DNA of 64,000 bases from Gammaproteobacteria bacterium (GTDB lineage Bacteria > Pseudomonadota > Gammaproteobacteria > S012-40). Of this stretch, positions 1,260 through 56,904 are shown one piece after another. The stretch is from the NCBI GenBank assembly GCA_029884425.1, contig JAOUHV010000009.1, positions 1,571 to 65,570 of the forward strand. Direction: 5' to 3'. Under the pieces are notes generated by a model. That model ran no database searches. It was not told the origin of the DNA and saw nothing but the letters and a program-made list of their open reading frames with translations. A program made the position numbers and the translations under genes. How positions within the stretch are numbered: position 1 is the stretch's first letter; the number at the start of each line of letters is the position of its first letter.

Positions 1260-4200
1260 ATGTCTCAAACCAACGAAAAAGCATTTGAGGCCTACGTAGA
1301 GCAAACCTTACTGACCAAGGGTTGGCAACAGGGCTCAGTCAGTGGCTGGGACAAGGATCGCGCGCTGTTCCCGCAACAGATCCTTGGGTTTATCGAGGCT
1401 ACGCAGCCCGAGCTGTGGCAAAACATGCTCACCCAGCATGGTGCGCAACTACAGCCGATGTTGATCGAGACACTGGTGAAGGAGCTGCGCATCAAGGGTT
1501 CGCTGCATGTGCTGCGCCACGGCTTTAAGTTTTACGGCAAGGGCTTTCGCCTGGCCTATTTCAAACCGGCCCACGGTCTGAATGAGGAGATTCTGACCCA
1601 GTACGGGCAGAACCAGCTTACCGTGACGCGGCAGGTGCCTTGCCACCCCGGTGACCACTCAACGGTGGATCTGGTGTTTGCCCTGAATGGCCTGCCGGTA
1701 GCCACCTGTGAGCTGAAGAACCCCTGGACCGGCCAGAGCTGGCGCCATGCGGTGCAGCAGTATCAGCAGGATCGCATTCCCGGTGCACCGCTGTTCGAGT
1801 TCAAACAGCGGGCGCTGGTGCATTTTGCGGCGGATCCCAACGAAATTCACATGACCACCCGCCTGCAGGGTGGCAAGACCTTCTTTTTGCCCTTTAATCG
1901 CGGCAGCCACCCCGGCGAGGTGCAGTGCGGTGCCGGTAACCCGGCCCATCCATCAGGCCACCGCACCGGTTACTTCTGGGAGGAGGTGCTGGAGCGGGAG
2001 AGTTTTCTCGACATTCTTGGCCATTTCATCTTCATCCAGCGCAAGGAGGAGAAGGTGGAGGATGGCCCCCAGGGATCAGGGCGCGGCAGCCGTTTGGTGA
2101 CCAAGGAGGCGATGATCTTTCCCCGCTATCACCAGCTGGATGCCACCCGTAAGCTGATTCGCACCGCCAAGACTGAAGGCACGGGCAATAACTATCTGAT
2201 TCAACACTCGGCGGGCAGTGGCAAGACCAACTCCATCTCCTGGCTATCACACCGGCTGGCAAGCCTGCACGATGACCGCGATCACAAGATCTTCGATTGC
2301 GTGGTGGTGATTACCGACCGGCAGGTGCTGGACCGCCAGCTACAGGATGCCATCTACCAGATCGAGCATGCCCAGGGGGTGGTGAAGGCGATCGATCAGG
2401 ATGCGAAACAGTTGGCCGAGGCGCTGATCGACGGCACGCGCATTGTGATCACCACTTTGCAGAAGTTTCCCTTTGTGTTGCGCGGCCTGCTGCGCAGCGC
2501 CGGGGCGGAGAACCCGGATGAGGCCGATGCCCAGAGCCGCGCCCAGGCCAAGGCGTGGGAGGATGAGATCGGCAAGCGCCGCTATGCGGTGATTGTGGAT
2601 GAGGCGCATTCGTCGCAAAGCGGCGAGACGGCCCGCGAGCTGAAGGCGATTCTGGGGGCCAATGCGGCACCGGCAGACGAGGAAGAGGACTGGGAGGATG
2701 GACTCAACCGGGTGATGGCCTCACGGGGTCGTCAGCCCAACATGAGCTTTTTCGCCTTTACCGCCACGCCCAAGGGCAAGACACTGGAGCTGTTTGGTCG
2801 TGTCGGACCAACGGGCAAACCAGAGCCGATCCACCTTTACAGCATGCGCCAGGCGATTGAGGAGCGCTTCATTCTCGATGTGCTGCAAAACTACACCACC
2901 TATGACACCTACTTCCGCCTGGTAAAGGCGGCAGAGGATGACCCGGATCTGCCGAAGAAGAAGGCGGCACGGGCGCTGGCCAAGTTTCTGGTGATGCACC
3001 CTACCAATATCAGCCAGAAGATCGAGGTGATCGTCGAACACTTTCGCAACAACGTGCGCCAGCATCTGGGCGGGCAAGCCAAGGCGATGGTGGTCACCGG
3101 TTCACGCCTGCACGCGGTGAAGTATATGCAGGCGTTTGAGCGTTACATCGCTGAACGGGGTTATACCGATGTTCGGCCGCTGGTGGCCTTTAGTGGCACG
3201 GTGAAAGACCCGGAGACCGGAGAGGAGTTTACCGAACCGGGTATGAATACCGATGTGGTGACTGGCAAACCAATCAGTGAGAAACAGTTGCCGGAGCGCT
3301 TTGCCTCACCCGATTATCAGGTATTGCTGGTAGCCAATAAGTATCAGACCGGATTCGATCAACCACTGCTGATGTCGATGTATGTGGACAAACGACTGGA
3401 CGGGGTGCAGGCGGTGCAGACGTTATCGCGCCTCAATCGCATGATTCCCGGCAAGCAGACGCCGTTTGTACTCGATTTCGTCAATGGCGCAGAAGAGATC
3501 TATTCGGCCTTCAAGCCCTATTACGATGCCACCAGTTTGCAGGAGAGTTCCGATCCATCACAGCTGGAGCAGTTAAAGCATGAACTGGACAAGGCGCAGG
3601 TCTATCACTGGAGCGAGGTGGAAGCCTTCTCACGCTTCTTTTACAAGTTGCCTGCTAACCAGAATCCGGCGGACCATGCGCATATCAATCGCCAGCTACA
3701 ACCGGCCATTGATCGCTTCAAGGCAATTGAGGATGAGGAGAAGCGCAGTGAGTTCCGCGACAAACTGAGCGGCTATGTGCGGGTTTACTCCTTCCTGAGC
3801 CAGATCATTCCCTTTGGTGATGCCGACCTGGAGATGCTGTTCAGCTATGGTCGTTTGCTGCTACCACACCTGCCACTTGATCGCGACACGACAGTGGTAA
3901 AACTGAATGAAGAGGTGGATTTGCAATACTACCGTTTGCAGCGCGTATTCTCCGGTGCAATCAACCTCAAGGACGGCGAAGGGGAGTATGGAGTAAAGAG
4001 CCCCACTGATGTCGGTACCGGTCGAGCAAAAGATGAGACAGCTCCACTCTCGGAGATCATCAAGGTATTGAACGAACGCTTTGGCACCAACTTCACCGAT
4101 GAAGATCGTCTGTTCTTCGAGCAGATAAAAGAGAAAGCAGCACACTCACCGCAGGTGGTTCAACTTCGGCAGGCCAACCCGTTCGACAAGTTCCAACTGG

Positions 4201-12823: not shown

Positions 12824-15800
12824 CTACAAAAGCACCTTTTCGATGCCATCTTTTTTCACTTTTGAAACAAATTGCGGCTGCCAATTATCGCCGAGCAGTT
12901 TGTTCGCCAGCTCTACAACAATGTAATCGGTTTCCATGCCGGTATCGTTCTGATAGCGCGACAGGCCCTGCACACAAGCCGGACACGAGGTCAGCAGTTT
13001 TACATTGCCTTTTTTGGCCTTGCTCTCGCCGGTCAACTGCTCAACCCCTTTGATCAGTTCTTCCTGCTTACGGAACCGAACCTGGGCGGCAATATCCGGA
13101 CGGGCAGTTGCGAAAGTACCGGCTTCACCGCAGCAGCGGTCATTCAAACTTACCTTGTTGCCCAGCAGGTTCTGCGCCACGGTAATTGAATTATGGGTTT
13201 TCATCGGCGTGTGACAGGGCTCGTGATACATGTACTGCACACCGGCAACACCGTCGAGTTTCACACCCTTTTCCATCAAGTATTCGTGAATGTCCAGCAA
13301 ACGACAGCCAGGGAATATTTTTTCAAATTCGTATTTCAGCAACTGATCCATGCAGGTACCGCAGGAAACAATTACTGTTTTGATGTCCAGATAATTCAGC
13401 GTATTGGCGACACGATGGAACAGCACGCGATTTTCCGTACTGATCTGTCGACCTTTGGCATCGTCGCCACCAGAAGATTGCGGATAACCGCAGCACAAAT
13501 AGCCCGGCGGCAATACCGTCTGCGCACCAACCTCGTACAACATCGCTAGCGTCGCCAAGCCGACCTGACTGAACAGACGCTCCGAACCGCAGCCGGGGAA
13601 ATAAAACACCGCATCACTGTCATCGGTGACCTTCGCTGGATCGCGCAGAATTGGCACCGTTTTGCTGTCTTCCACTTCCAGCAAACCGCGCATGGTTTGC
13701 GACGGAATATTTGCCGGCATCGGTTTTTTGAAGAAGTTGATAACCTGTGCTGGCAATGGCGTCTTGCCAGTGGTGCCTTCCGGACGCTTGTTTTGCTTGA
13801 GCATGCCGGTGGTTTTCAACACCGAATGCGCCAGTCGTTGCCCTTTGGCTCCCCACTCAATCATACCTTTGCGCATGATACGAACCGCGGTCGGGTCAGT
13901 CACGTTCAGGTAACTCATCGCCAGTGCCGAGCCAAGATTCTTCGACTTCTGACCGCGATTATTCAAAATATTACGCAGCCGTACCGTCACATCACCAAAA
14001 TCGATATTGACCGGACATGGCGTCACACAGCGATGACACACGGTGCAGTGATCGGCCACATCATTGGCTTCGTCAAAGTGACGCAGGGAAATACCGCGAC
14101 GCGTTTGTTCTTCGTACAAAAACGCTTCGATGATCAAGCCCGTGGCCAGAATTTTATTGCGTGGCGAATACAACAGATTGGCGCGCGGCACGTGCGTGGT
14201 ACACACCGGCTTACACTTGCCACAACGCAAACAATGACGAATATCATCATTGAGCGCGCCCAGTTCGCTTTCTTCCAGAATCAGCGCTTCTTGCTGAACT
14301 AAGCGCAGCGATGGCGTATAGGCATTGGCCAGATCCGCGCCGCGCATCAACTTGCCTTTGTTGAAATGTCCTTTCGGATCAACCTTGGCTTTGTAACTGG
14401 CGAACGCATCCAGACTTTTATCGTCCATGTACTGAATTTTGGTGATCCCAATACCATGCTCGCCGGAAATCACGCCATCAAGCGACGTTGCCAGCGCCAT
14501 GATTTCATCGACCACATGATCGGCGGTTTGCAGCATTTCGTAATCGTTGGAATGCACCGGAATATTGGTGTGCACATTGCCATCGCCCGCATGCATGTGG
14601 GTGGCCACAAACAGGCGACTGGTGCGAATCTGCTGATGAATTTCGTCAAATTTCGCCCGCACCAATTCCTGCTCTCGACCGGCAAAAATTTCCTTGAGCG
14701 GCGATTCAATACTGTTGCGATAGGACACGCGCAAATCACGACGCAACAGCAGATCAAGCAGCGTATCACCCTCGCGCATTGCCTGCTGGGTACGCTCTGA
14801 CAAATGCGGCAAATGATCTCGCGCTGGTGCATCCAGTTTTTCCAAAAACGTCTGCCAGCGATTGCGCACTTCGGTCATGCGCGCTTTGGCGGCGATTTTT
14901 TTCTGCTCCAGAATCACATCGCTTTCGGCGCTGGCCAGATATTCCTTGTTCTTGCGCAGCAGCTCCTGCCAATCCTCGTCGATGAAGCCAAACACCGCAT
15001 CGAGAATTTTAATTTTATTGCGAATAGACTGGACGATATTGATGCGCTCAATACCGCGAGAATATTCTGCCAGTCGCGACAGTGGAATCACCACGTCTTC
15101 GTTAATCTTGAACGCATTGGTGTGCGCAGCAATGGCTGCGGTACGACTGCGATCCAGCCAGAAACGACGCCGTGCCTCCGGACTGATGGCGACAAAGCCC
15201 TCACCATCGCGGCGCTGAATCATCGCCACCACGTGCGCCACAGCCTCGGCCACATCGGCTTCAACATCGCCGGAGATATCCGCAATCAACACCATCTTGG
15301 GCTGTTCGCGACGCGCTGCCTTGGTGGCGTATTTCACTGCCTTGACGTAACGCTCGTCCAAGTGTTCCAGACCGGCCAACACAACCGTGGGATGCTTTTG
15401 CAAATAATCGTTAATTTCAACTATCGCCGGTACGGCATTGCCAACGTCGTAGCCAAAAAATTCCATGCAGACGGTTTGGGTAAAATTGGGCATACGGTGC
15501 AGCACAAACACACCGGAGGTAATCAAACCGTCACAGCCTTCTTTTTGCACGCCAGGCAAACCACCGAGGAATTTGTCGGTAACATCTTTGCCCAGACCCA
15601 GTTTGCGGAATGCCTGACCCGGCATTTGCAGAATTTCCGGTTCGCCTTTACGCGTTTTGCCATCAGCCTGATAGCGGGTAATACGGAACGTCACCTGCGC
15701 CTGATCGTGAATCTTGCCCAGGTTGTGATTGATGCGCTCGACCTCCAGCCACTCGGCATCGGGCGTCACCATCCGCCAGGAAACCAGATTGTCCAGCGCC

Positions 15801-16669
15801 GTACCCCACAGCACGGCTTTTTTGCCGCCGGCATTCATCGCGATGTTGCCGCCAATGGTGGACGCATCCTGCGAAGTAGGATCGACCGCAAACACACAAC
15901 CCGCCGCTTCGGCGACCTCGGCCACGCGTCGTGTCACTACACCGGCTTCAGCACGCACCGTAGCAACGTCGCGATCCACGCCTTCCAGACGACGCGTCTC
16001 GACCTTGCCCAGACCTTCCAGCTTTTCGGTATTAACCACCGCCGATTCGGACACCAGCGGAATCGCACCGCCGGTGTAGCCGGTACCGCCGCCGCGAGGA
16101 ATCACGGTCAGCCCCAGCGCAATACACTCTTTGACCACCAGCGCCATTTCTTCTTCGCTGTCCGGCGTAATGACCACAAACGGGAATTCCACCCGCCAGT
16201 CGGTCGCGTCGGTCACATGAGATACGCGCGCCAAACCACCAAAATCGATATTGTCCTTGCGGGTGATGCGCCCCAGCCGCTTGCTGGCCTCGGCGCGCAG
16301 CACCATCTGCCGCGCAAACCAGGCTTCAAATTCAGTCACTGCCAAGCGCGCCGCACCGACCAGTTTGCGCGTCAGTTCATTTTCGTTGGCGCGCAAGTCG
16401 ATCTGGTCCAGACGATGGTGCAATGCACCGACCAGCGCCTTATTGCGGCTTTCGTTTTCCAGCAGGTCGTCCTGGATGTAAGGATTGCGCGTGATAACCC
16501 ACATATCCCCCAACACCTCGAACAGCATGCGTGCCGATCGACCGGTGCGACGGGTGCCGCGCAGCTCGTTGAGCACGCGCCACATGTCCTCGCCCAAAAA
16601 GCGAATGACGATTTCTCGGTCGGAAAATGAGGTGTAATTGTAGGGAATTTCGCGAATGCGCATGGGCAA
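12824..16669 (-). CDS. DUF3683-containing FAD-binding / (Fe-S)-binding oxidoreductase (YdiJ-like 2-hydroxyacid dehydrogenase)
   Basis: 1281 aa. N-terminal extension, an FAD-binding PCMH domain, a GlcD-like oxidase body, then C-terminal CX2CX2CX3C ferredoxin-like and CCG cysteine-rich domains (GlcF/HdrD-like). Collinear with E. coli YdiJ plus roughly 260 extra N-terminal residues. Confidence 0.8.
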
Positions 16670-21870: not shown

Positions 21871-22959
21871 ATGAGCAATGCGCGTTTCATCAAGGATTTT
21901 CACCAACTCTGCTGTCTGGGCGTCAACTCACGGGAGCTGATGCCCCATCTCATCCGCGAGGTCGAGAACAATATTCCAACCATTATGGTCAGTTTCCAGT
22001 GGACCAATGGCAACGGAAACACCGTCGATTATTACCACACCGGAGCCGACTTTCCGCTCGAACTGCAGCAGCGCTGCCTCGACGTCGTCATCAATGGCAC
22101 CGAGGCCGAATACGGTCCTACCACCCGCGATTTCCTGAGCGGTACCGAGTCCGTCATCAACTACAGTCAGCGCTATGCCCGGCGCTACCACAACTCCTCT
22201 GCCTACGATGAGGTCCACCGCCCAATCGGCATTTACCACTTCACCCGCGCTGCCACCCATGACGGCCAGCGCGCCACGGGACTGTTCCACTTCTGCCGCT
22301 CCCGACAAGACCCGGACTTTAGCGAGAATGAGCTATCCCTGATCCAGCAGCTACTCCCGCTGATCAGCCACGCGGTCAGTGCTGACAACAGCCATCCCGG
22401 CTATGACCAGCTCACCGATGGCGAGTTTGGCCAGATCGTGGTCACTCCCAGCGCCGGCGTCGAATACTGCGATGCGGAAGGCCAACAGTTTCTCAACCAC
22501 ATGATCAAGGTACCGCTACGCACCGGTCACAACGCAACACCGAAATTTGAGGAAATCGTGGCACAGCTGCTGCGCAAACTGAACCACCCGGAAGAGAAAC
22601 CTGCCCCGCCTGCCCTGCGCCTGCGCACCCTCTGGGGACACTTCACCCTACGTGCCACTTGGCTGCGCAGCAACCCTGCGCCTGAAAGCAAGCCGATGAT
22701 CTCCATCCAGGTGCAACATCACCTGCCGCTACCCCTGCGACTCTGGCAGCGACTACAGGAAAGCCCTCTCAGCAGCAAACAGAAAGAAATTGGCCTGTTG
22801 CTAACCCAAGGATTGGGACGCGAAGAAATCGCCCGTAGGCTCGGCCAAAGCCCTCACACCATCACCACTCATGTGCGCCAGCTTTATTTGCGGCTTCACG
22901 TCAGCAATCGCGAAGAACTACTCAAGCAACTTCTCACTCACTCCACCCACACTTTCTGA
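21871..22959 (+). CDS. LuxR-family transcriptional regulator with uncharacterised N-terminal domain
   Basis: 362 aa. C-terminal LuxR-type HTH (LSSKQKEIGLLLTQGLGREEIARRLGQSPHTITTHVRQLYLRLHVSNR). No receiver or autoinducer-binding domain recognised in the 290-aa N-terminal region. Confidence 0.7.
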   Translation: MSNARFIKDFHQLCCLGVNSRELMPHLIREVENNIPTIMVSFQWTNGNGNTVDYYHTGADFPLELQQRCLDVVINGTEAEYGPTTRDFLSGTESVINYSQRYARRYHNSSAYDEVHRPIGIYHFTRAATHDGQRATGLFHFCRSRQDPDFSENELSLIQQLLPLISHAVSADNSHPGYDQLTDGEFGQIVVTPSAGVEYCDAEGQQFLNHMIKVPLRTGHNATPKFEEIVAQLLRKLNHPEEKPAPPALRLRTLWGHFTLRATWLRSNPAPESKPMISIQVQHHLPLPLRLWQRLQESPLSSKQKEIGLLLTQGLGREEIARRLGQSPHTITTHVRQLYLRLHVSNREELLKQLLTHSTHTF

Positions 22960-23076
22960 TCCGCAGCATCCCCCCTGCGGGTGATATTCGCTGCAAATCG
23001 CCAGCGGTAAAATTCCCCGCATAGCCGAGGGAATTTTCATTCTCCCGGAACAATGATGTTTTTCAGGAGAACAACC

Positions 23077-23916
23077 ATGCACAAAATCACAACAGTAATC
23101 CGCTCACTGGCGCCTGCCCTCCTAGGCAGCGTCATGACACTAACAGCACTGCCTGCCATGGCGACGGCCAGCTACTCAATCTGGGGAGAACTCGATGCCG
23201 ATGTCACGGCGAGCTCCGACACCGGAGTAGGCACCAGTATCTACAACAGCAACACCACCCTCACCCCTGCAATGGCTGGCAACGGTACTCACACCGAATT
23301 CACCAATGGCAGCCAGAGCGCCCACACGGACGGAAGCTTCACCAGCACACTGGCATTGTTTGGCGTGGCCGGCGATGGCTCCGCAAATGGAAATTCCATG
23401 GCGTGGTATCAAGGCCACTCCTTCATGGACATCGTTTTTGGAAATTACGGCGAGGACATGGGTGGCGGAACTATCAACATTAACTTCGCCAAGCAGTTTT
23501 CGCGCGTCGACGCACTCACCGATCTGACTGGCGAATTGGCTGCTGCCAGATTCACCTTCGAGATAGCGTGGTACGAACTGGGTTCAGAAGCGGTTTCTCT
23601 ACTCAAAGTCAGCCACGAAGTTACTGCCCAACAAGGTGACAAGCAATCACTGGAGACATACTCCCTGCTGTGGCCCAATACCGACATCAGCTTCCACGCC
23701 AACAAGTCAGGAACGCTACTGTTTTACACCACACTGGAAGGCACAGCGGGAGCATCCTATCCGGAAACCGGCGGTGGCCAGGGTGGCGGTGGCGTGATTT
23801 GCGGCAATCTGGCCGCCTGCGACGTCAGCAGAGAGGTTCCAGCGCCAACAGCACTGCTCCTGCTCACACTTGGACTGGCTGGCATGGGTCTAGGCCGCAA
23901 ACATCGCACTGCTTGA
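23077..23916 (+). CDS. PEP-CTERM sorting-domain secreted protein
   Basis: Signal peptide (..LTALPAMATA), Ser/Thr/Gly/Asn-rich body, and C-terminal VPAPTALLLLTLGLAGMGLGRKHR, which is the PEP-CTERM pattern (VP.P + TM helix + basic tail). Start chosen at MHKITTV (AGGAGA Shine-Dalgarno) rather than 23053. Confidence 0.65.
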   Translation: MHKITTVIRSLAPALLGSVMTLTALPAMATASYSIWGELDADVTASSDTGVGTSIYNSNTTLTPAMAGNGTHTEFTNGSQSAHTDGSFTSTLALFGVAGDGSANGNSMAWYQGHSFMDIVFGNYGEDMGGGTININFAKQFSRVDALTDLTGELAAARFTFEIAWYELGSEAVSLLKVSHEVTAQQGDKQSLETYSLLWPNTDISFHANKSGTLLFYTTLEGTAGASYPETGGGQGGGGVICGNLAACDVSREVPAPTALLLLTLGLAGMGLGRKHRTA

Positions 23917-24942: not shown

Positions 24943-25890
<948 letters not shown>

Positions 25891-25906
25891 TCGCGAGGAG
25901 CAGCCC

Positions 25907-27199
25907 ATGAAAATCGCTTTCAGGCTCATTACCGGCCTGCTGTTTTTCTGGGCTGCCGCCACTGCCCAGGCACAAACCGCCACCGTCATTTATTCGGGCA
26001 ATCTTGATGGCGAACTTGAGCCGTGTGGTTGCTCCGAAACCGGCAACTTTGGCGGCATCCTGCGTCGCGTCACCGTCCTCGACGAATTACGCGAAAAAAA
26101 TTCGCCATTTTTTCTGCTGTCCGCTGGCGGCCTGATAGTCAACGAAGCGCCGCAAGACAAAAATAAAAGCGAATACATTTTCAAAGGCTTTGCCGCACTG
26201 AACTATGACGCAATCGGCGTACAGCACAACGACCTGGCATTCGGCGCGCCGTTTATGCAACAAGCCAAATTGCCCTGGACTGTCAGCAACAGCCAAATCA
26301 GTGACATCCCTGCATTTCGCGATATTCGCAAAGGCGATACCAGTCTGCGTTTTTTCCAGTGGATGAGTCCAGCCGAGCACAGTACGGTAGACAACACGCC
26401 GGTCGATGCCAGCAGCGCGGCAATCAACCGATTGAGCCAACAGCTACAGCAAGCACGCCAGCAACAGCAGCTCACCCTGGTTGCCAGCACACTGACGCTG
26501 GACGAGGCGAAAAAAATTCTGCCACTGGCGCTGATTGATCTGTTGATCATCAAGGCCAATTACGAAATCTACGGCGAGCCACAAAAAATCGGCGACACCA
26601 TCGTGCTGCAACCGGGTTCACGCGGTATGCGCCTGGGTCGACTGGAATTACAAATCAGCAATGGCCGCGTTCTCAGTTTCAAGCATGACGTCATCGCCAT
26701 GCCCAACACCATCGCCGATGCACCGCGCATGCACGACTGGTATGTCGCCTACAACAATGCCGCTGCCGAATTTTTCAAAGCAAAAATTGCCAAACAGAAA
26801 AACCTGAAAGACAGCGACAAACTGTTTGCCGGCGCACAAGCCTGTCAAAGCTGCCACCGCAGCGCATACGAAACCTGGCAAAAATCCAAACATGCCGAGG
26901 CGTACTACAAACTGATGGACGTGGAAAAAGGTTACGACCCGGACTGCGTCGGCTGTCATGTACTGGGATTGGATAAACCCGGCGGATTCCTCGACCCCAT
27001 GCTCACCGAAGACATGATGCACGTGCAGTGTGAAAACTGTCATGGCGCCGCCAAAGCACACGTCAACAGCGGCGGCCAAACCAAAACCAGCAACCACGAC
27101 TGGAAAGCCAGCGATCGATGCGCCCAATGCCACGTGCAAAAACACAGTCCGCAATTCAAATTTGATCAATACTGGCCACGCATCCAGCACGGGAAATAA
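25907..27199 (+). CDS. secreted fusion protein: degenerate 5'-nucleotidase/metallophosphatase-like N-domain + C-terminal tetraheme cytochrome c
   Basis: 430 aa. Signal peptide (AAATAQA). Four CxxCH motifs (CQSCH, CVGCH, CENCH, CAQCH) in the last ~130 aa. The N-domain aligns to the UshA N-domain pattern (TVIYSGNLDG / LLSAGG / YDAIGVQHNDLAFG vs ITVLHTNDHHG / LLSGGD / YDAMAIGNHEFD) with the metal ligands mostly substituted. It starts 16 nt after the hemF stop. Confidence 0.7.
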   Translation: MKIAFRLITGLLFFWAAATAQAQTATVIYSGNLDGELEPCGCSETGNFGGILRRVTVLDELREKNSPFFLLSAGGLIVNEAPQDKNKSEYIFKGFAALNYDAIGVQHNDLAFGAPFMQQAKLPWTVSNSQISDIPAFRDIRKGDTSLRFFQWMSPAEHSTVDNTPVDASSAAINRLSQQLQQARQQQQLTLVASTLTLDEAKKILPLALIDLLIIKANYEIYGEPQKIGDTIVLQPGSRGMRLGRLELQISNGRVLSFKHDVIAMPNTIADAPRMHDWYVAYNNAAAEFFKAKIAKQKNLKDSDKLFAGAQACQSCHRSAYETWQKSKHAEAYYKLMDVEKGYDPDCVGCHVLGLDKPGGFLDPMLTEDMMHVQCENCHGAAKAHVNSGGQTKTSNHDWKASDRCAQCHVQKHSPQFKFDQYWPRIQHGK

Positions 27200-27226
27200 A
27201 AAAGGCTCATCATTGATGAGCCTAAA
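27198..27226. terminator. bidirectional intrinsic terminator
   Basis: Perfect hairpin GGCTCATCA-tt-GATGAGCC flanked by an A-run upstream and AAAAT downstream. It serves the cytochrome gene (+) and the convergent minus-strand gene. Confidence 0.6.
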
Positions 27227-27256: not shown

Positions 27257-28315
27257 TTAATGCCGCGCATCTGTGGACAGTTTCAAACCATCCTTGCTCA
27301 CCAGCAACACCTGCTGCGGCGAGTGCTGGGCCTGCTCACGCACAACCAGCTCAACACCCATGGCTTTCAAACCAGACACAATTATCGCCGCATCATCGAC
27401 ACTGGCCAAACGCACTGATTGAATAGCATTACCGCTCAGCAAACGCTGCTTTAATTTCAAAAACGCCACCGGCGCTGAATCTGCGGACAAATCCACATCC
27501 GCCGAAAAATCTTTCTCCAAAGGCAATGCACTGGCCTCCCGAACCTCATCCACCCAGCGGTCCACCTGCTCACTCAGCGCCAACAACTGCGGTTGAGTTT
27601 TTTCGCCCTGCAACTGATGATGCAACTGGGTGAAGACATTGACCAAATCACGGCGATCAGGCAGCGCTCTGGCCAGCGGTAATGCCAAACCGCCCTCGAT
27701 GACTCGCACACCACCGCGTGACTGGATGGCCGCCTTGGCCACCAGATCCAACACATTTTCATTGCATACCAGCACCTGCGACAACTCACCCGCACTCAGC
27801 AAGGTATTGCGAAATTGTTGTTCACTGCGCGCCTCGTCCAGCAGTGCGGCAATCGGATTTTGCTGGGCATCGCGCCCCATGGAATCCAGCATGATCGCGG
27901 CGAAATCCTGCTTGCCAGCAAAATCTGCCAACAACTCCGTCAGGTCTGACGGCGACACCTGCAGAAAGTCATCCAGCAGTTCGGTAAAAAATGGTAACTG
28001 CTTGCGGCAAACCCAGTCGGTAAATGCCTCATCGCTGGCGGCGTCCGCCTCGAAGGTGTGTTCAATGCGGGCAATGGCGGCACGTGCGCGCACCACCGGA
28101 ATTTCCGGCCCCAGCAAAGTCAGGCCAGCATTGTTGGCCGCGCATTCGCCACCCAGGCGCAGGCGATAAAACGGTACCAGCTTGCCGTACATCTGTTTCA
28201 TAAATCCGTGCAGACCTATATCTGCCGCCAGCGGCTGAGAAAAATTATTTAAATAGGCGCTGATTCCAACACTCAATTTCATCGATTCATTCCTCACCGC
28301 AAGCTGTGCGGCCAA
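27257..28315 (-). CDS. hypothetical protein
   Basis: 352-aa ORF with consistent codon usage. No motifs recognised. The start is more likely the internal ATG at MKLSVGIS than 28315. Confidence 0.45.
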   Translation of the reverse strand: MAAQLAVRNESMKLSVGISAYLNNFSQPLAADIGLHGFMKQMYGKLVPFYRLRLGGECAANNAGLTLLGPEIPVVRARAAIARIEHTFEADAASDEAFTDWVCRKQLPFFTELLDDFLQVSPSDLTELLADFAGKQDFAAIMLDSMGRDAQQNPIAALLDEARSEQQFRNTLLSAGELSQVLVCNENVLDLVAKAAIQSRGGVRVIEGGLALPLARALPDRRDLVNVFTQLHHQLQGEKTQPQLLALSEQVDRWVDEVREASALPLEKDFSADVDLSADSAPVAFLKLKQRLLSGNAIQSVRLASVDDAAIIVSGLKAMGVELVVREQAQHSPQQVLLVSKDGLKLSTDARH

Positions 28316-52057: not shown

Positions 52058-52298
52058 CAAGGGACTACGGAGCAAAAATTGCGCGTGAGAATCGGGTACT
52101 TTACCAACCACCCAAACTCTTCGCCGTTATCGCCAGCCCCCCCATACCAACTGAAGCCACAATCGTCCTGTTCACAAAAATTTTACCCGCAGCAATCACT
52201 CACCACCCAGCCAGAATCATTCGTTCCGTCAGCCTGTCTTTTCTGCCTAAAACCAAGGGAATAGCCTCATAAATTGTCACGTTTCCTTTACTATCCCT

Positions 52299-52328
52299 AT
52301 TGGAAAGCCCTCCCTCATCTCTCTATAC
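52299..52328 (+). promoter_or_regulatory. candidate sigma70 promoter of the GRE operon
   Basis: TTGGAA, 18-nt spacer, TATACT. About 45 nt upstream of the GRE start codon. A GAGG Shine-Dalgarno sits 9 nt before the ATG at 52373. Confidence 0.35.
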
Positions 52329-52372
52329 TGGAGGTGAGCCCTTTTCCACCCAAATCTTTGAGGCATCTACTC

Positions 52373-55357
52373 ATGAGTGAATCCCAGCTTGGCCACGGGG
52401 GCATACAGATCGACCTGACGAACCCCGCCAGTAAAACCCACGACTCCCCCAGCCGCGTATTTCCCATCGCCAACGACAATCCAAAGCAGGTCAAAACACT
52501 GCGCGATTTGTCACTGACCGACATCAGCATCAATGATTTCCAAACCGTCAAATGGTGGCGCGAGCGGCTTTTTCTCGACGAAGGAACACCGGAAATTTGC
52601 GATGAATTGCCGCGCTTGCTCACCGAATTCATGCGCGACCCTGCCAATGATGAACTACCGCCTTACCAAAGACGCGCCGAAGCACTGAACTATATTTTCA
52701 GCAAGAAAACACCACTGGTGCGCAAAACAGATTTATTACCCGGTCAAACCACAACCAGTTTTGTTGGCCCAGTAATTTATGCTGACACCATTGGCTATTG
52801 CATCTGGCCAGAATTAAATACCGTCACTCATCGTGCGCAAAATCCGTTCAAAATAAAACCTGAAGTTGCAGAACGCTTAAACAAAGAAATTTTTCCCTAC
52901 TGGTTGCAACGCCTGCCTGTGCAGGAAGTCGCCCGTTATCGCGCCTATGACACCCAACAATATCGCAACGATGGCCGCGACACCGTGGACGGTGGCCATT
53001 ATCACGGCATTCCATCCATCGACCCGCAATTGAAAAAAGCTGCCGGTGAAACACCGACCTGTCAGGCATTGATGGAACGCGTGTCCTTTTTCCTGTCAGA
53101 CAAAGCCACCTGCGTTTCGCACACCGTGCCGGATTTTGCGCGCGTGCTCAAATACGGTCTGAATGGTTTAATTCAACAAGCCAATAACGATATCGCCAAT
53201 TCCGCACTCAGTGATTCGCAACAACAGTTTTTAAAAGGCGTCGTCTGCGTGTTTGAGGGCGCAAAAAACTATGCGCAACATTTGGCGCAAGCTGCCGCCG
53301 AGGCAGGCAATACCGAACTGAGCGCTATCTGCCAGCGCGTACCGGCACAACCTGCACGCACGCTGCATGAAGCCATCACCAGCATCTGGATTTGCTATCA
53401 CCTGTTGCTACAGGAAAATACCAATTTTGGTTTGTCCATTGGTCGTCTTGATCAACTGCTCAATCCGTATTATCTCAGCGATTGGTCACAACTGGGTTCC
53501 GGCCAGGAACGCGACGCCTATACCAAGCACGCCGTAGAGTTGATGTGTCATTTCTTCCTTCGTTGTTCCGATCACGTTCCGCTATCCACCGAAGGTTCTG
53601 AAACCTTGTTCGCCGGCAGCGGTTCCAATCAGGCGCTGACGGTCGGTGGCACACAGGTGGTCGATGGCAAAGTTGTCGATGCCGTTAACGACATGACCTA
53701 CATCATTCTCAAAGCCACGGAATTGCTGGGCATTCGCGACCCGAATGTTCATGCCCGTTATCACAAAGATGTGCATCATCGCGACGCCAGTGGCAATCCT
53801 CTGCCTGCCGAAGTCCACGATGGTTATCTCAAGCGAATTTGTCAGGTCAATATTCTCACTCGCGCCACACCGGCGCTGCATGGCGATGCCGCCGTGGTTG
53901 ATGCCATGGCCAGCTATTACGCGGCTCATGATGGCGTGAGCGCCGATGAGGCACTGGCTGACGCCCACGATTACGCCTCCATCGGCTGCATTGAGCAAAA
54001 TTCAGCAGGTAAACATTACGGCAACACCGGCTCGACCTTGATGGTTTTACCTGCTGTGCTGGAGCTGGCGATGTTTGGCGGCAAACATCGCAGCGACGGC
54101 ATCGCTGCCAATGATCCGAATTTATTTTACGGCGCGAGCGCCTACACCACACCACCGCTCAGCCGAATGAAAACCATGGAAGAGTTCATCGCTGCTTTTC
54201 GTATCCAGCTGGATGAAATGGCCAGACATGCAGTGCAATGCAACAACTATCTGGGGCGCGCCATGGAAGATGTTCGGCCTTCGCCATTTTTGTCTGGCTT
54301 GTTTGTTGGACCAAGTAATTTACCTGGCGGACAAGGTGCCAAGTTCCGCGACGTTGCCGCTGGTGGGGCAAAATACAATTCCGCCGGGGTTGCCATTATC
54401 GGTCTGGCCGATGTCATCGACTCGTTCTGCATTTTTGATCAATTAGTCTTTGGTAAAAAAATCTCAGTCAGCGAATTGCTGTCCGCAATGAACAGCAACT
54501 TTGGTCAGCAAGCGCCCGCCTCAGCAAAAGAAAGCAGCTGGATTCGACGCATTATCCAGCGCATCGTTGCCTGGTTGCGTTTGTCTGACGAACTGCAAAC
54601 GCTGCCTACGCTCAGCGATGAGCGCATCGCACAAATCAACCAGCTGCTGCGCCGCGCACCCAAATATGGCGCCGGCATTGAACAAACACCGGGCAGTGTT
54701 TACGACAATCATCTTGCGGTGAAATACACGCACCTGCTGACCGAAATGATTCATGATACGTTCTACAAATATCGCACCCATCGCGGTGGCCGCTATCTGG
54801 TCGGCTATTGGAGCATGACCAACCATGCCGGCTTTGGCATGCTAACCAAAGCCACGCCCAATGGCCGCCGCGGTGGTCAATCGTTTGCCAGCGGCATCAC
54901 CCCTTGCCCCAACATTGTCAAAGCCAACGGTGATCCGGTAATGATTTTCGATCACATGCTGTCGGTGGCTGAAGTCCGTCCGCAGACGGTGCAAAATGGC
55001 TACACCTACAACCTCAGTCTGACCACTCGCGATGCTGAACATTTTGACGCCGACACCGAACTGTTTTCGCGCTACATGAAAGCCTTCATGGATCATGACG
55101 GTGTATTGGTGCAGCTGTGCGTATCCTCCATTGAGGATTTGCGCGCAGCCCACAAGGCAGCCAATGACGCCGAAGCCATCGGTGCCACGACTGAAGCCAA
55201 ACAGGCGCTGACACCGTTCAAGGATTTAATGATTCGCGTTGCAGGATACTCTGCCTATTTCGTCACTCTCAGCCCGCAAATGCGGCAGGAGATTATCGAT
55301 CGGGCGAACTTCTCACTCGACACAGGCAAAGAAACACACACCGCTTTCAGCGTTTAG
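52373..55357 (+). CDS. glycyl radical enzyme, PFL2 (glycerol dehydratase/CutC-like) class, unknown substrate
   Basis: About 994 aa. C-terminal glycyl-radical loop IRVAGYSAYFVTLSPQMRQEIIDR (Gly codon 55244-55246). Active-site loop SIGCIEQ (Cys 53987-53989, Glu two residues later), which is the C-x-E arrangement of PFL2-class enzymes rather than the PflB Cys-Cys pair. N-terminal region homologous to PFL2 N-termini (RRAEALNYIFSKKTPLVRKTDLLPGQTT) preceded by a ~100-aa extension. Start at MSESQLGHGG; the ORF track begins 33 codons upstream without a Shine-Dalgarno. Confidence 0.85.
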   Translation: MSESQLGHGGIQIDLTNPASKTHDSPSRVFPIANDNPKQVKTLRDLSLTDISINDFQTVKWWRERLFLDEGTPEICDELPRLLTEFMRDPANDELPPYQRRAEALNYIFSKKTPLVRKTDLLPGQTTTSFVGPVIYADTIGYCIWPELNTVTHRAQNPFKIKPEVAERLNKEIFPYWLQRLPVQEVARYRAYDTQQYRNDGRDTVDGGHYHGIPSIDPQLKKAAGETPTCQALMERVSFFLSDKATCVSHTVPDFARVLKYGLNGLIQQANNDIANSALSDSQQQFLKGVVCVFEGAKNYAQHLAQAAAEAGNTELSAICQRVPAQPARTLHEAITSIWICYHLLLQENTNFGLSIGRLDQLLNPYYLSDWSQLGSGQERDAYTKHAVELMCHFFLRCSDHVPLSTEGSETLFAGSGSNQALTVGGTQVVDGKVVDAVNDMTYIILKATELLGIRDPNVHARYHKDVHHRDASGNPLPAEVHDGYLKRICQVNILTRATPALHGDAAVVDAMASYYAAHDGVSADEALADAHDYASIGCIEQNSAGKHYGNTGSTLMVLPAVLELAMFGGKHRSDGIAANDPNLFYGASAYTTPPLSRMKTMEEFIAAFRIQLDEMARHAVQCNNYLGRAMEDVRPSPFLSGLFVGPSNLPGGQGAKFRDVAAGGAKYNSAGVAIIGLADVIDSFCIFDQLVFGKKISVSELLSAMNSNFGQQAPASAKESSWIRRIIQRIVAWLRLSDELQTLPTLSDERIAQINQLLRRAPKYGAGIEQTPGSVYDNHLAVKYTHLLTEMIHDTFYKYRTHRGGRYLVGYWSMTNHAGFGMLTKATPNGRRGGQSFASGITPCPNIVKANGDPVMIFDHMLSVAEVRPQTVQNGYTYNLSLTTRDAEHFDADTELFSRYMKAFMDHDGVLVQLCVSSIEDLRAAHKAANDAEAIGATTEAKQALTPFKDLMIRVAGYSAYFVTLSPQMRQEIIDRANFSLDTGKETHTAFSV

Positions 55358-56014: not shown

Positions 56015-56904
56015 TGAGCATGCAAACCCAGGCATGGATTTTCGACATCAAACGCGATTGCAGCGAGGACGGACCTGGCATACGCACCACAGTTTTTTTC
56101 AAAGGCTGCCCTCTGCAGTGTCAGTGGTGCCAAAACCCGGAAGGTCTGCCCACACCCCATCATTTTCATCCTATCACCGAGCAATGTGCTGAACTGGACA
56201 ATGGCGAGCTGATTGATCTGCAAACGCTGCTGCATCGCGTGCTGATCGACAAACATTTCTTCATCTCCAGCGGCGGCGGGGTAACGGTCTCTGGCGGCGA
56301 AGCAACCCTACAACATGACTTCCTTCACCATTTTTTAAAACAACTCAAAGCCGAAGGCATACACACCTGCCTGGAAACCAGTGGATTCTTCAACTATCGC
56401 CGTTTCAGTGAACAGTTATTGCCCTATCTGGATCTGATTTATTTTGACGTAAAAATTTTCGACGACACCCTCAGCCGCCAATTCACCAAGCAAGGCAGCT
56501 CCCTTATTTTGCAGAATCTGAAAAACCTCAGCCAACAATCCAAGGTCACCGTCATCCCACGAATTCCATTAATCCCTGGTATCACCACCCGCAAAGACAA
56601 TCTTGTTCGCATTGCACAACACCTGCGCCAATTACATTTTTCCACCGCTGTTTTGCTGCCATACAACCCCCTATGGCAGGACAAGCTGGCCAAACTCAAT
56701 ATGCACAGCGAATATCAGCGAAAAACTTTCATGACTGCGGATGAACTACAGGAGTGCCAGGATATTTTCATTTCTGCACTTAACCAAACTTCACAAGCAA
56801 CCAACGATTATCATGGCGTACAAGGAGATCACAATGAACAATCCTTACCTGAGCAGCCACAATTTCCCCTGCCAAAACGAACAAGAGAGGCAACAACTCA
56901 ATAA
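56014..56904 (+). CDS. glycyl-radical enzyme activating enzyme (radical SAM, PflA-type)
   Basis: 296 aa. GIRTTVFFKGCPLQCQWCQNPE (CX3CX2C radical-SAM cluster), SGGGVTVSGGEATLQ and EGIHTCLETSGF motifs near-identical in pattern to E. coli PflA. No CX2CX2CX3C ferredoxin-like insert. Confidence 0.85.
   Translation: MSMQTQAWIFDIKRDCSEDGPGIRTTVFFKGCPLQCQWCQNPEGLPTPHHFHPITEQCAELDNGELIDLQTLLHRVLIDKHFFISSGGGVTVSGGEATLQHDFLHHFLKQLKAEGIHTCLETSGFFNYRRFSEQLLPYLDLIYFDVKIFDDTLSRQFTKQGSSLILQNLKNLSQQSKVTVIPRIPLIPGITTRKDNLVRIAQHLRQLHFSTAVLLPYNPLWQDKLAKLNMHSEYQRKTFMTADELQECQDIFISALNQTSQATNDYHGVQGDHNEQSLPEQPQFPLPKRTREATTQ

Follow-up and report, generated by a model that had tools for sequence, protein, structure and literature searches.

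UshA-like proteins with a CxU motif ('COG0737 UshA-like') were listed as a selenoprotein family by Zhang and Gladyshev in the Global Ocean Sampling (GOS) survey of 2008 (PMC2398784), and reviews name two UshA-like selenoprotein models, NF041198 and NF049981 (PMC9312934, PMC13188914). No function is assigned to the family in any of these three papers. Here we describe a shorter relative, encoded at positions 25907-27199 (+ strand) of a 64,000-nucleotide stretch of a Gammaproteobacteria bacterium contig (JAOUHV010000009.1), the whole of which we call the window. The protein joins an N-terminal domain with the 5'-nucleotidase fold to a tetraheme c-type cytochrome and carries a Cys-Gly-Cys (CGC) motif, the second cysteine of which is selenocysteine in some relatives. 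In several clades this module is tied to DsbA-type proteins as an operon neighbour or by fusion, and we tentatively propose that it acts as a periplasmic thiol/disulfide oxidoreductase.

NF041198 (UshA_like_PCGU, 'UshA-like (seleno)protein', an equivalog model) is the best database match of the window protein, with 206.3 bits (7.1e-61), below the curated cutoff of 275 bits. The true member P0200 (522 amino acids, aa) scores 371.9 bits, and other short clades (gammaproteobacterial and Nitrospirota-type) reach 195-267. The model spans both the UshA-like and the tetraheme parts and matches the window protein in two stretches, including residues 256-419 on profile positions 348-518. The fusion, a combination which the first-pass annotation of this DNA did not recognise, is therefore the defining architecture of a catalogued family (PMC2398784, PMC13188914). 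Family and window protein share the signal peptide, the UshA-like N-domain with P-C-G-(C/U) at the same position after the first β-strand, and the C-terminal tetraheme part. The window protein is about 90 aa shorter (430 versus ~520 aa), with a trimmed N-domain and Cys in place of selenocysteine; its clade has GG at metal-binding motif II (GD or GG in the family), Q-H/W-x-D at motif III and an invariant pocket of its own. From these comparisons it is best classed as a member of a sub-threshold, shorter, all-Cys gammaproteobacterial sister clade of a catalogued, uncharacterised family.

The family is large. An exhaustive homologue search over 1.84 billion representatives (50% identity clusters) returned 6128 matches at E <= 1e-3, 3668 at 1e-10 and 476 at 1e-30, and species-representative genomes contain at least 500 encoding loci; the fusion, whose distribution had been left as a question, is thus widespread. 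Hosts among the matches listed include Ectothiorhodospiraceae, Chromatiales, Thiohalomonadales, Sedimenticola, Methylococcales, Pseudohongiella, Nitrospinia, Thermodesulfovibrionia, Nitrospira japonica, SAR324, Thermodesulfobacteriota, Acidobacteriota and others, with Motiliproteus sp. MSK22-1 and Aestuariirhabdus sp. LZHN29 as cultured examples. Members from Gammaproteobacteria, Nitrospirota, Nitrospinota, Desulfobacterota, SAR324, Acidobacteriota and other groups are known by the labels 'multiheme c-type cytochrome' or 'UshA-like (seleno)protein'. The window protein is itself identical to P0001, named 'MAG: multiheme c-type cytochrome [Gammaproteobacteria bacterium]' (MAG, metagenome-assembled genome) by the Prokaryotic Genome Annotation Pipeline (PGAP).

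Domain architecture and the Cys-Gly-Cys motif

The gene and its product comprise the following features.

25907-27199, + strand: whole gene, UshA-like PCGC tetraheme cytochrome, predicted periplasmic, 430 aa; ATG start, stop codon counted in
25907-25972, + strand: Sec-type signal peptide, aa 1-22, MKIAFRLITGLLFFWAAATAQA with Q following the cleavage point; basic n-region, hydrophobic core and AQA cleavage motif
25973-26716, + strand: N-domain of 5'-nucleotidase fold (calcineurin-like metallophosphoesterase), aa 23 to ~270, from profile and Foldseek; all classical metal-ligand motifs replaced
26021-26032, + strand: family-defining PCG(C/U) motif P39-C40-G41-C42, a proposed redox-active dithiol; C42, the Cys/selenocysteine position, is TGC at 26030-26032
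26723-26797, + strand: long linker helix, aa 273-297, from the N-domain to the heme domain, by AlphaFold2 secondary structure; equivalent of the 5'-nucleotidase inter-domain helix
26819-27196, + strand: tetraheme cytochrome c554-type domain, aa 305-430 (PF13435; profile matches 1bvb and 6i5b)
26843-26857, + strand: heme motif 1, C313-Q-S-C-H317, 100% conserved in 135 representatives
26945-26959, + strand: heme motif 2, C347-V-G-C-H351, within DCVGCHV, near-identical to the matching motif of Nitrosomonas c554
27029-27043, + strand: heme motif 3, C375-E-N-C-H379, from sequence and conservation in representatives
27119-27133, + strand: heme motif 4, C405-A-Q-C-H409, from sequence and conservation in representatives

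An N-terminus equivalent to the signal peptide is present in all family members of an alignment of 40 close homologues. Attachment of c-type hemes needs the periplasm, so that export of the 430-aa protein is required; signal peptide and hemes together place the whole protein, by prediction, in this compartment. Pfam, NCBIfam, profile searches and the structural model agree with the first-pass description of a secreted fusion between an UshA/5'-nucleotidase-like domain with replaced dimetal ligands and a tetraheme c554-type cytochrome.

The nucleotidase likeness escapes Pfam. With the single sequence, neither Metallophos (PF00149) nor 5_nucleotid_C (PF02872) matched and the cytochrome part alone was recognised, a result which taken by itself would wrongly refute the likeness; profile and structure searches were therefore needed. 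NCBIfam matched the single protein to NF049981 ('UshA-like (seleno)protein family 2', 1e-11) and SoxB (5e-7), besides NF041198. A profile of 49 diverse relatives (A2), searched against PDB, found the 5'-nucleotidases of snake venom (1e-31), CD73 (~1e-28), E. coli c4898 (2e-26) and UshA (1e-19), together with SoxB (2wdc, 7e-19). An AlphaFold2 model built on 40 homologues (predicted local distance difference test, pLDDT, 80.4; predicted template modelling score, pTM, 0.77) has the 5'-nucleotidase fold as well: the top 50 PDB matches in Foldseek are all 5'-nucleotidases (E ~2e-15, template modelling (TM) score 0.51 over ~315 residues), headed by 3ivd, CD73 and 1ush. The early assignment of the N-domain to the UshA/5'-nucleotidase type is borne out by all three approaches.

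The N-domain shares with 5'-nucleotidases, UshA and CD73 the fold, the inter-domain helix, a conserved GG-x-x-R helix cap and an S/A-N motif; in the venom and human enzymes, too, the loop that follows motif I bears Cys. The metal ligands are all replaced in the profile alignment, which bears out the substitutions read from the sequence before. Motif I, D-x-H, has become N32-L-D34 (D to N32, H to D34); motif II, G-D, is G74-G75 (D to G75); and motif III, G-N-H-E, is Q106-H107-N108-D109, with W at position 107 in most close relatives (N to H/W107). The histidines of the later GH and GGH motifs are lost, with A-S-T and K-A-N at their places in the alignment. On this alignment the dimetal site does not survive and phosphoesterase chemistry is judged to be lost. 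The alignment to 5'-nucleotidases stops at the inter-domain helix, near profile position 305; residues 305-430 are cytochrome, and the tetraheme domain takes the place of the C-terminal nucleotide-binding domain, which is absent. The N-terminal part thus corresponds only to the metallophosphoesterase domain and linker helix of a 5'-nucleotidase, without its C-terminal domain. Because nucleotide-binding domain and metal site are both gone, the suggestion of a phosphoester-sensing module is unsupported.

Loss of the metal site has not released the domain from constraint. Among the 40 close homologues (45-66% identity), 26 N-domain positions are invariant, among them N32, G35-E36-L37-E38-P39-C40-G41-C42, G49-G50, R53, D101, Q106, D109, N128, Y219-E220 and G237-S238-R239-G240-M241-R242. 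Across the 49 diverse members, which are as little as 22% identical to the window protein, only C40, C42, G49 and G74 are invariant in the N-domain, and the two cysteines are its only invariant side chains; in 135 full-length representatives both are 96-97% conserved. The signature G-x-(L/I)-x-P-C-G-C...G-G-(I/L)-x-R-R is found throughout the superfamily. Invariance on this scale makes the CGC motif the functional core and not an incidental insertion. It had been noted as an insertion; the motif is indeed there at C40-G41-C42, in a loop which 5'-nucleotidases carry at the same place, with C42 opposite the first Cys of the loop in the venom and human enzymes (KC..C.GGVAR).

In two distant relatives, a deltaproteobacterial MAG (locus L064, position 6127) and an Acidobacteriota genome (locus L072, position 879), the alignment has TGA in place of the C42 codon, in the context …EPCG-TGA-AE…GGLYK. 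Read-through in frame gives full-length proteins of 455 and 457 aa, in which all four CxxCH motifs are kept. The window gene has TGT for C40 and TGC for C42 and so encodes the Cys form. In a single energy test of the selenocysteine insertion sequence (SECIS) type, the hairpin after the TGA in these two loci was not more stable than shuffled sequence (z -0.6 to -0.9); the assignment of selenocysteine is suggested by in-frame conservation and the published family listing. Interchange of Cys and selenocysteine at one position is a standard marker of a catalytic redox residue, and C42 is thereby marked as one. With its strong constraint, a CxC invariant over the superfamily and selenocysteine at C42 in relatives, the domain does not fit the label 'catalytically degenerate', and annotation as a degenerate nucleotidase is a wrong reading. 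The same two selenocysteine-type relatives retain remnants of the metallophosphoesterase site (DSGD, VGE.DL, GGH) which the window clade has lost, and this suggests that the metal site may have eroded stepwise after the CxU/CxC centre arose.

Dithiols of the CxC type are known to be redox-active, at potentials like those of protein disulfide isomerase (PDI) and DsbC: -167 mV for the CGC tripeptide, -139 mV for CsgC and -130 mV for YphP (PMC3173608). A CGC peptide acts as a PDI mimic (bioRxiv 10.64898/2026.01.27.701630).

Four CxxCH motifs had been counted in the C-terminal part, and they were found at C313, C347, C375 and C405; all are 100% conserved in the 135 representatives. As nearly all of 150 representatives have exactly four, the heme domain is an obligate part of the module. 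Pfam Cytochrome_C554 (PF13435) matches residues 312-380 at 5.6e-15 (56.5 bits, gathering score 20.8). Cytochrome c554 (1bvb) is the sole PDB match of the single sequence (7e-7) and is found at 4e-23 with the family profile, which also relates the domain to the c554-like modules of the nonaheme OcwA (6i5b, 5e-31). The candidate distal ligands, in the 135 representatives, are H329 (100%), H385 (99%) and H428 (97%), whereas H413 is His in 62% only; superfamily-wide there are thus three conserved distal His for four hemes. Cytochrome c554 has one five-coordinate heme, and one heme of the window family may likewise be open, or be ligated from elsewhere, e.g., from the N-domain. Nitrosomonas europaea cytochrome c554 (CycA; 1bvb/1ft5) also shares the spacing pattern of the four CxxCH and the DCVGCHV motif. 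CycA is a free carrier of hydroxylamine oxidation of ~211-240 aa, whereas the window domain is part of a 430-aa enzyme and scores 39.5 bits against the CycA equivalog model NF043010 (cutoff 400).

Gene neighbourhoods and fusions

Open reading frames (ORFs) were called in 84 loci and clustered by all-against-all BLASTP. In 14 loci the gene is followed on its own strand, after 2-50 nt, by a gene for a DsbA-like protein of ~209 aa (L044, L045, L048, L050, L051, L054, L055, L057, L059, L061, L062, L065, L067 and L068), and in a 15th, L079, it lies 166 nt downstream; these loci span Nitrospirota, Thermodesulfobacteriota and deltaproteobacterial MAGs. The operon partner has a thioredoxin fold (PF01323, 9.5e-11), a signal peptide, one CxxC and DsbA as its best NCBIfam match. 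Its active site is, for instance, CGHC, CSHC, CGSC, CPHC or CDHC; the CGHC, CSHC, CPHC and CDHC types are those of oxidases and isomerases. In the gammaproteobacterial locus L031 a 402-aa Thioredoxin_4/DsbA protein with CPHC and an N-terminal extension (1152-2360, + strand) is encoded directly upstream of the homologue (2373-3716), at the gene start. Its best NCBIfam match, below cutoff, is NF041057, the Rcas_1661-family thioredoxin-like (seleno)lipoprotein.

The same association is found within single polypeptides. A DsbA-type domain is present in seven of ten unusually long superfamily members, and at least nine representative clusters have a DsbA or GILT domain joined to the module. P0155, P0159 and P0161 carry a DsbA-like domain C-terminal to the hemes, where P0221 and P0249 carry a GILT/DsbA domain. 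In P0172 and P0248 (~1200 aa) an UshA-like CxC module is followed directly by a DsbA domain and then by a second UshA-like module with tetraheme; the first module of P0172 has the motif EPCEC and its DsbA domain CPHC. A hidden Markov model (HMM) made from the operon partners finds the fused domains of P0155, P0159, P0161, P0184 and P0197 at 1e-31 to 1e-38, each with one CxxC. Neighbourhood and fusion are thus two independent ties between the CxC-tetraheme module and DsbA-type proteins, seen in several clades and with two orders of the domains. The DsbA domain of P0172 sits after the N-domain, where the window protein has its tetraheme and 5'-nucleotidases their substrate-carrying C-domain; because it holds this position, the arrangement suggests by analogy that DsbA domain and tetraheme could both dock onto the N-domain face bearing the CxC.

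Literature searches for the combination of nucleotidase, multiheme and DsbA, for metallophosphoesterase-cytochrome fusions and for cytochrome-dependent reoxidation of DsbA returned nothing relevant; the DsbA linkage, and the mechanism which we infer from it, were not found in the searchable literature and appear to be new.

Other genes recur near the operon in the Nitrospirota-type lineage only: an ArsR regulator with a heavy-metal-type P-type ATPase (L044, L047, L051, L057, L059, L065 and L067), a cation diffusion facilitator (CDF) efflux gene (L055, L061 and L068) and ResB/CcsA cytochrome c biogenesis genes (L051, L057, L059, L065 and L080). They could reflect a link to metal stress or cytochrome maturation, or mere synteny. 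Response regulators, CheB, an ATP-binding cassette (ABC) ATPase, Rrf2, spermidine synthase, Amt and CBS neighbours were set aside as generic or as lineage synteny.

Within the gammaproteobacterial clade the gene stands essentially alone, among housekeeping neighbours that are shuffled between loci. The features flanking it in the window are as follows.

24955-25890, + strand: hemF, oxygen-dependent coproporphyrinogen III oxidase, upstream neighbour (PF01218 1.5e-135; NF003727 8.7e-141)
25896-25900, + strand: Shine-Dalgarno-like AGGAG, 6 nt before the ATG, inside the gap between hemF and the gene, read from the sequence
27203-27223, strand not assigned: 9-bp hairpin between convergent genes, T-run on the minus strand

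The hemF stop codon (TAA, 25888-25890) lies exactly 16 nt before the cytochrome gene, as first reported. No promoter-like site was found in this gap; as it is too short to hold a promoter and a ribosome-binding site is present, both genes probably share one transcript here. The co-transcription proposed by the first-pass annotation is thus plausible in this genome, and it does not amount to a conserved partnership: hemF lies upstream on the same strand in 3 of ~42 related gammaproteobacterial loci (the window, L005 and L036); in L012 it has the opposite orientation. From a comparison of 80 loci we rejected hemF as a functional partner; tsaC, purD, miaB and phoH shuffle likewise as neighbours (tsaC is near the gene in six gammaproteobacterial loci); its adjacency is local synteny, not a functional link, and should not be over-interpreted. 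The T-run of the hairpin is on the minus strand, which makes it a likely terminator, possibly bidirectional, of the convergent downstream ORF (27257-28315, - strand, 352 aa). This ORF has no Pfam or NCBIfam match and a homologue in one related locus only (L008).

The remainder of the window is ordinary housekeeping (purD, tsaC, hemF, metH, fusA, type I restriction-modification, sensor kinases). A 287-aa secreted protein (23053-23916, + strand) ends in a PEP-CTERM-like sorting tail (…VPAPTALLLLTLGLAGMGLGRKHRTA), and the ORF upstream of it (21871-22959, + strand, 362 aa) has a C-terminal LuxR-type helix-turn-helix-like sequence; the pair hints at an exosortase substrate and its regulator. The window also encodes a 1281-aa multidomain oxidoreductase (12824-16669, - strand) with DUF3683, FAD-linked oxidase, 4Fe-4S dicluster, CCG cysteine-rich and DUF3400 domains, and a 1027-aa glycyl-radical enzyme resembling pyruvate formate-lyase (PFL; 52274-55357, + strand), followed by small ORFs and an 858-aa protein with no Pfam match (56741-59317, + strand).

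Proposed mechanism and rival explanations

We propose that a 5'-nucleotidase N-domain has been repurposed in the window protein to give a periplasmic thiol(selenol)/disulfide oxidoreductase, which links DsbA-type partners to the c-type cytochrome pool. We rate this somewhat short of an even chance, and it is the reading we prefer. With the dimetal site erased, the loop after the former motif I carries Cys40-Gly-Cys42, which would cycle between dithiol and vicinal disulfide (or selenenylsulfide in those relatives with selenocysteine). The tetraheme domain, in place of the substrate-carrying C-domain, would take electrons from the CxC, convert its two-electron chemistry to one-electron steps and connect it to periplasmic c-type cytochromes. 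The partner of the CxC would be a DsbA-type thioredoxin-fold protein, which other clades encode in the same operon or as a fusion and which this genome presumably encodes elsewhere. Because the partners have active sites like those of oxidases and isomerases and CxC potentials are relatively oxidising, we favour electron flow from reduced DsbA-type protein to CxC, hemes and respiratory chain, which would make the protein a soluble, heme-based counterpart of DsbB/VKOR.

Several observations weigh against this proposal. The polar residues N32, E36, E38, R53, D101, Q106, D109, N128, Y219, E220, S238, R239 and R242 are invariant in the gammaproteobacterial clade but as a set are not shared with the DsbA-linked clades, and they look like a small-molecule pocket. 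The DsbA-type neighbour in L031 is the only one in the gammaproteobacterial clade (1 of ~42 loci), and tblastn found no DsbA-like ORF in the window, neither as an adjoining gene nor elsewhere. Most Gammaproteobacteria already have DsbB, so that a second DsbA oxidase would be redundant there. As the arginine-rich pocket is not shared with the DsbA-linked clades, a small-molecule oxidoreductase is a serious rival, if in our judgement a doubtful one. Here the CxC or CxU, in a retained 5'-nucleotidase/SoxB-like cleft, would attack an inorganic species of sulfur, selenium or a metalloid (e.g., sulfide, polysulfide, thiosulfate, sulfite, selenite or arsenite), and the hemes would carry electrons to or from the cytochrome pool, in analogy to a flavin-free flavocytochrome c sulfide dehydrogenase or to the S-S chemistry of SoxXA/TsdA, with DsbA-like partners only recycling or protecting the active-site thiols. 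The profile and TIGR04486 matches to SoxB speak for such an enzyme, as do the three invariant Arg of the pocket (R53, R239, R242), which with its acidic and amide residues are typical of oxyanion binding, the many sulfur oxidisers among the hosts (Ectothiorhodospiraceae, Chromatiales, Thiohalomonadales, Sedimenticola), the isolation of the gene in the gammaproteobacterial clade, and the heme without a universal distal His, which if five-coordinate as in c554 could be catalytic. Yet nitrite oxidisers (Nitrospira, Nitrospinia) and heterotrophs (Motiliproteus, Aestuariirhabdus, Pseudohongiella) are found among the hosts as well, and the hosts have no sulfur metabolism in common; no sox, dsr, fcc or ars genes recur among the neighbours, and the pocket residues are not kept superfamily-wide, whereas the CxC and the DsbA linkage recur in several clades.

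The structural and DsbA-linkage evidence behind the thiol relay would serve equally for a flow in the opposite direction, from low-potential periplasmic cytochromes through the hemes to the CxC disulfide, keeping the DsbA-like partner reduced for disulfide isomerisation, cytochrome c maturation or repair of oxidised periplasmic thiols, as a soluble DsbD/CcdA analogue. Many of the DsbA-linked hosts are anaerobes with low-potential cytochrome pools, bis-His c-type hemes commonly have low potential, and ResB/CcsA genes lie nearby in five Nitrospirota-type loci. We nevertheless give this direction little credence: the partner sites CGHC, CSHC and CPHC resemble oxidases and isomerases and not reductases of the CcmG/ResA type, and the ResB/CcsA genes are divergent, lie beyond an ATPase gene in a single lineage and may be synteny; CxC disulfides are, moreover, relatively oxidising (-130 to -167 mV; PMC3173608). 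Very unlikely, in our view, is a role of the Cys/selenocysteine pair as a ligand, either of a metal (e.g., Cu, Ni or Fe) in a rebuilt site or, as His/Cys(selenocysteine) coordination in the manner of SoxAX and TsdA, of the heme without a conserved distal His. The count of three universal distal His for four hemes would suit it; selenocysteine binds metal in formate dehydrogenases and [NiFeSe] hydrogenases, GD and GGH, left over from the old metal site, persist in the selenocysteine-type members, and metal-efflux genes lie near the operon in the DsbA-linked clade (ArsR with P-type ATPase in seven loci, CDF in three). These neighbours are, however, confined to one lineage, thiol exchange is what the tie to DsbA-type thiol oxidoreductases suggests, and Cys-Gly-Cys is a poor bidentate chelator for most metals and a known redox motif (PMC3173608). 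Least likely, and to our mind close to dismissal, is an inert relic, with an N-domain that merely binds or senses phosphoesters on a plain soluble tetraheme carrier co-expressed with hemF. Lost phosphoesterase ligands, the 16-nt gap to hemF and a Pfam match confined to the cytochrome part would fit a relic; an inert domain would hardly show 26 invariant positions at ~45-66% overall identity and a CxC invariant over the whole superfamily, or have selenocysteine at C42 in relatives, which is not maintained in inert domains, and neither the absent nucleotide-binding C-domain nor a hemF linkage in only 3 of ~42 loci agrees with it. The earlier alternative of a novel periplasmic electron-transfer protein comes closest of the initial readings to the thiol relay proposed here, and misses the thiol/selenol centre and the DsbA link.

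Comparison with known systems

A broader claim, which we regard as unlikely though worth stating, is that UshA-like PCG(C/U) tetrahemes form a third, unrecognised class of periplasmic disulfide-generating machinery: soluble proteins that would reoxidise DsbA-type proteins through CxC/CxU and pass the electrons directly to c-type cytochromes, as a bacterial parallel to Mia40-Erv1-cytochrome c of mitochondria, with the window protein as the stand-alone gammaproteobacterial version and its DsbA encoded elsewhere. If true, this could explain DsbA recycling in lineages or under conditions where DsbB/VKOR-quinone systems are absent or ineffective. Periplasmic thiol-disulfide homeostasis would then be coupled to the cytochrome c pool without quinones, which bears on oxidative folding in diverse, often anaerobic or uncultured bacteria, and an enzyme superfamily would have swapped its catalytic chemistry while keeping its two-domain mechanics. 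The proposal of a hydrolase scaffold turned into a Cys/selenocysteine redox enzyme, with four hemes wired to it and a genetic link with DsbA-type proteins, is testable.

Within the superfamily, the thiosulfohydrolase SoxB (TIGR04486) is periplasmic too and acts in thiol/sulfur chemistry on the protein-bound cysteine of SoxY. SoxB hydrolyses with an intact dimanganese site and carries no hemes, whereas the window protein lacks the ligands and reaches 28.4 bits against TIGR04486, over residues 209-300 only (cutoff 550).

The window protein is likened to DsbB/VKOR and to Mia40-Erv1-cytochrome c for its proposed function only, in which a vicinal Cys pair would take electrons from a DsbA-type protein and hand them on to the respiratory chain; the CxC of Mia40 is CPC, and cytochrome c is where the Mia40-Erv1 relay ends. 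There is no kinship in sequence or fold. DsbB and VKOR are polytopic membrane proteins with two Cys pairs and a quinone site. The window protein has no Pfam or NCBIfam match to DsbB/VKOR, its signal peptide is the only hydrophobic N-terminal segment and the model is a soluble two-domain protein; its cofactors are hemes c and not quinone or flavin adenine dinucleotide (FAD), and the analogy is drawn from fusion and neighbourhood. With CsgC, YphP and the CGC peptide mimics of PDI it shares the vicinal Cys-x-Cys, which in these is redox-active at PDI/DsbC-like potential (PMC3173608). The folds are unrelated (immunoglobulin-like, thioredoxin-like), and none of the three is wired to hemes.

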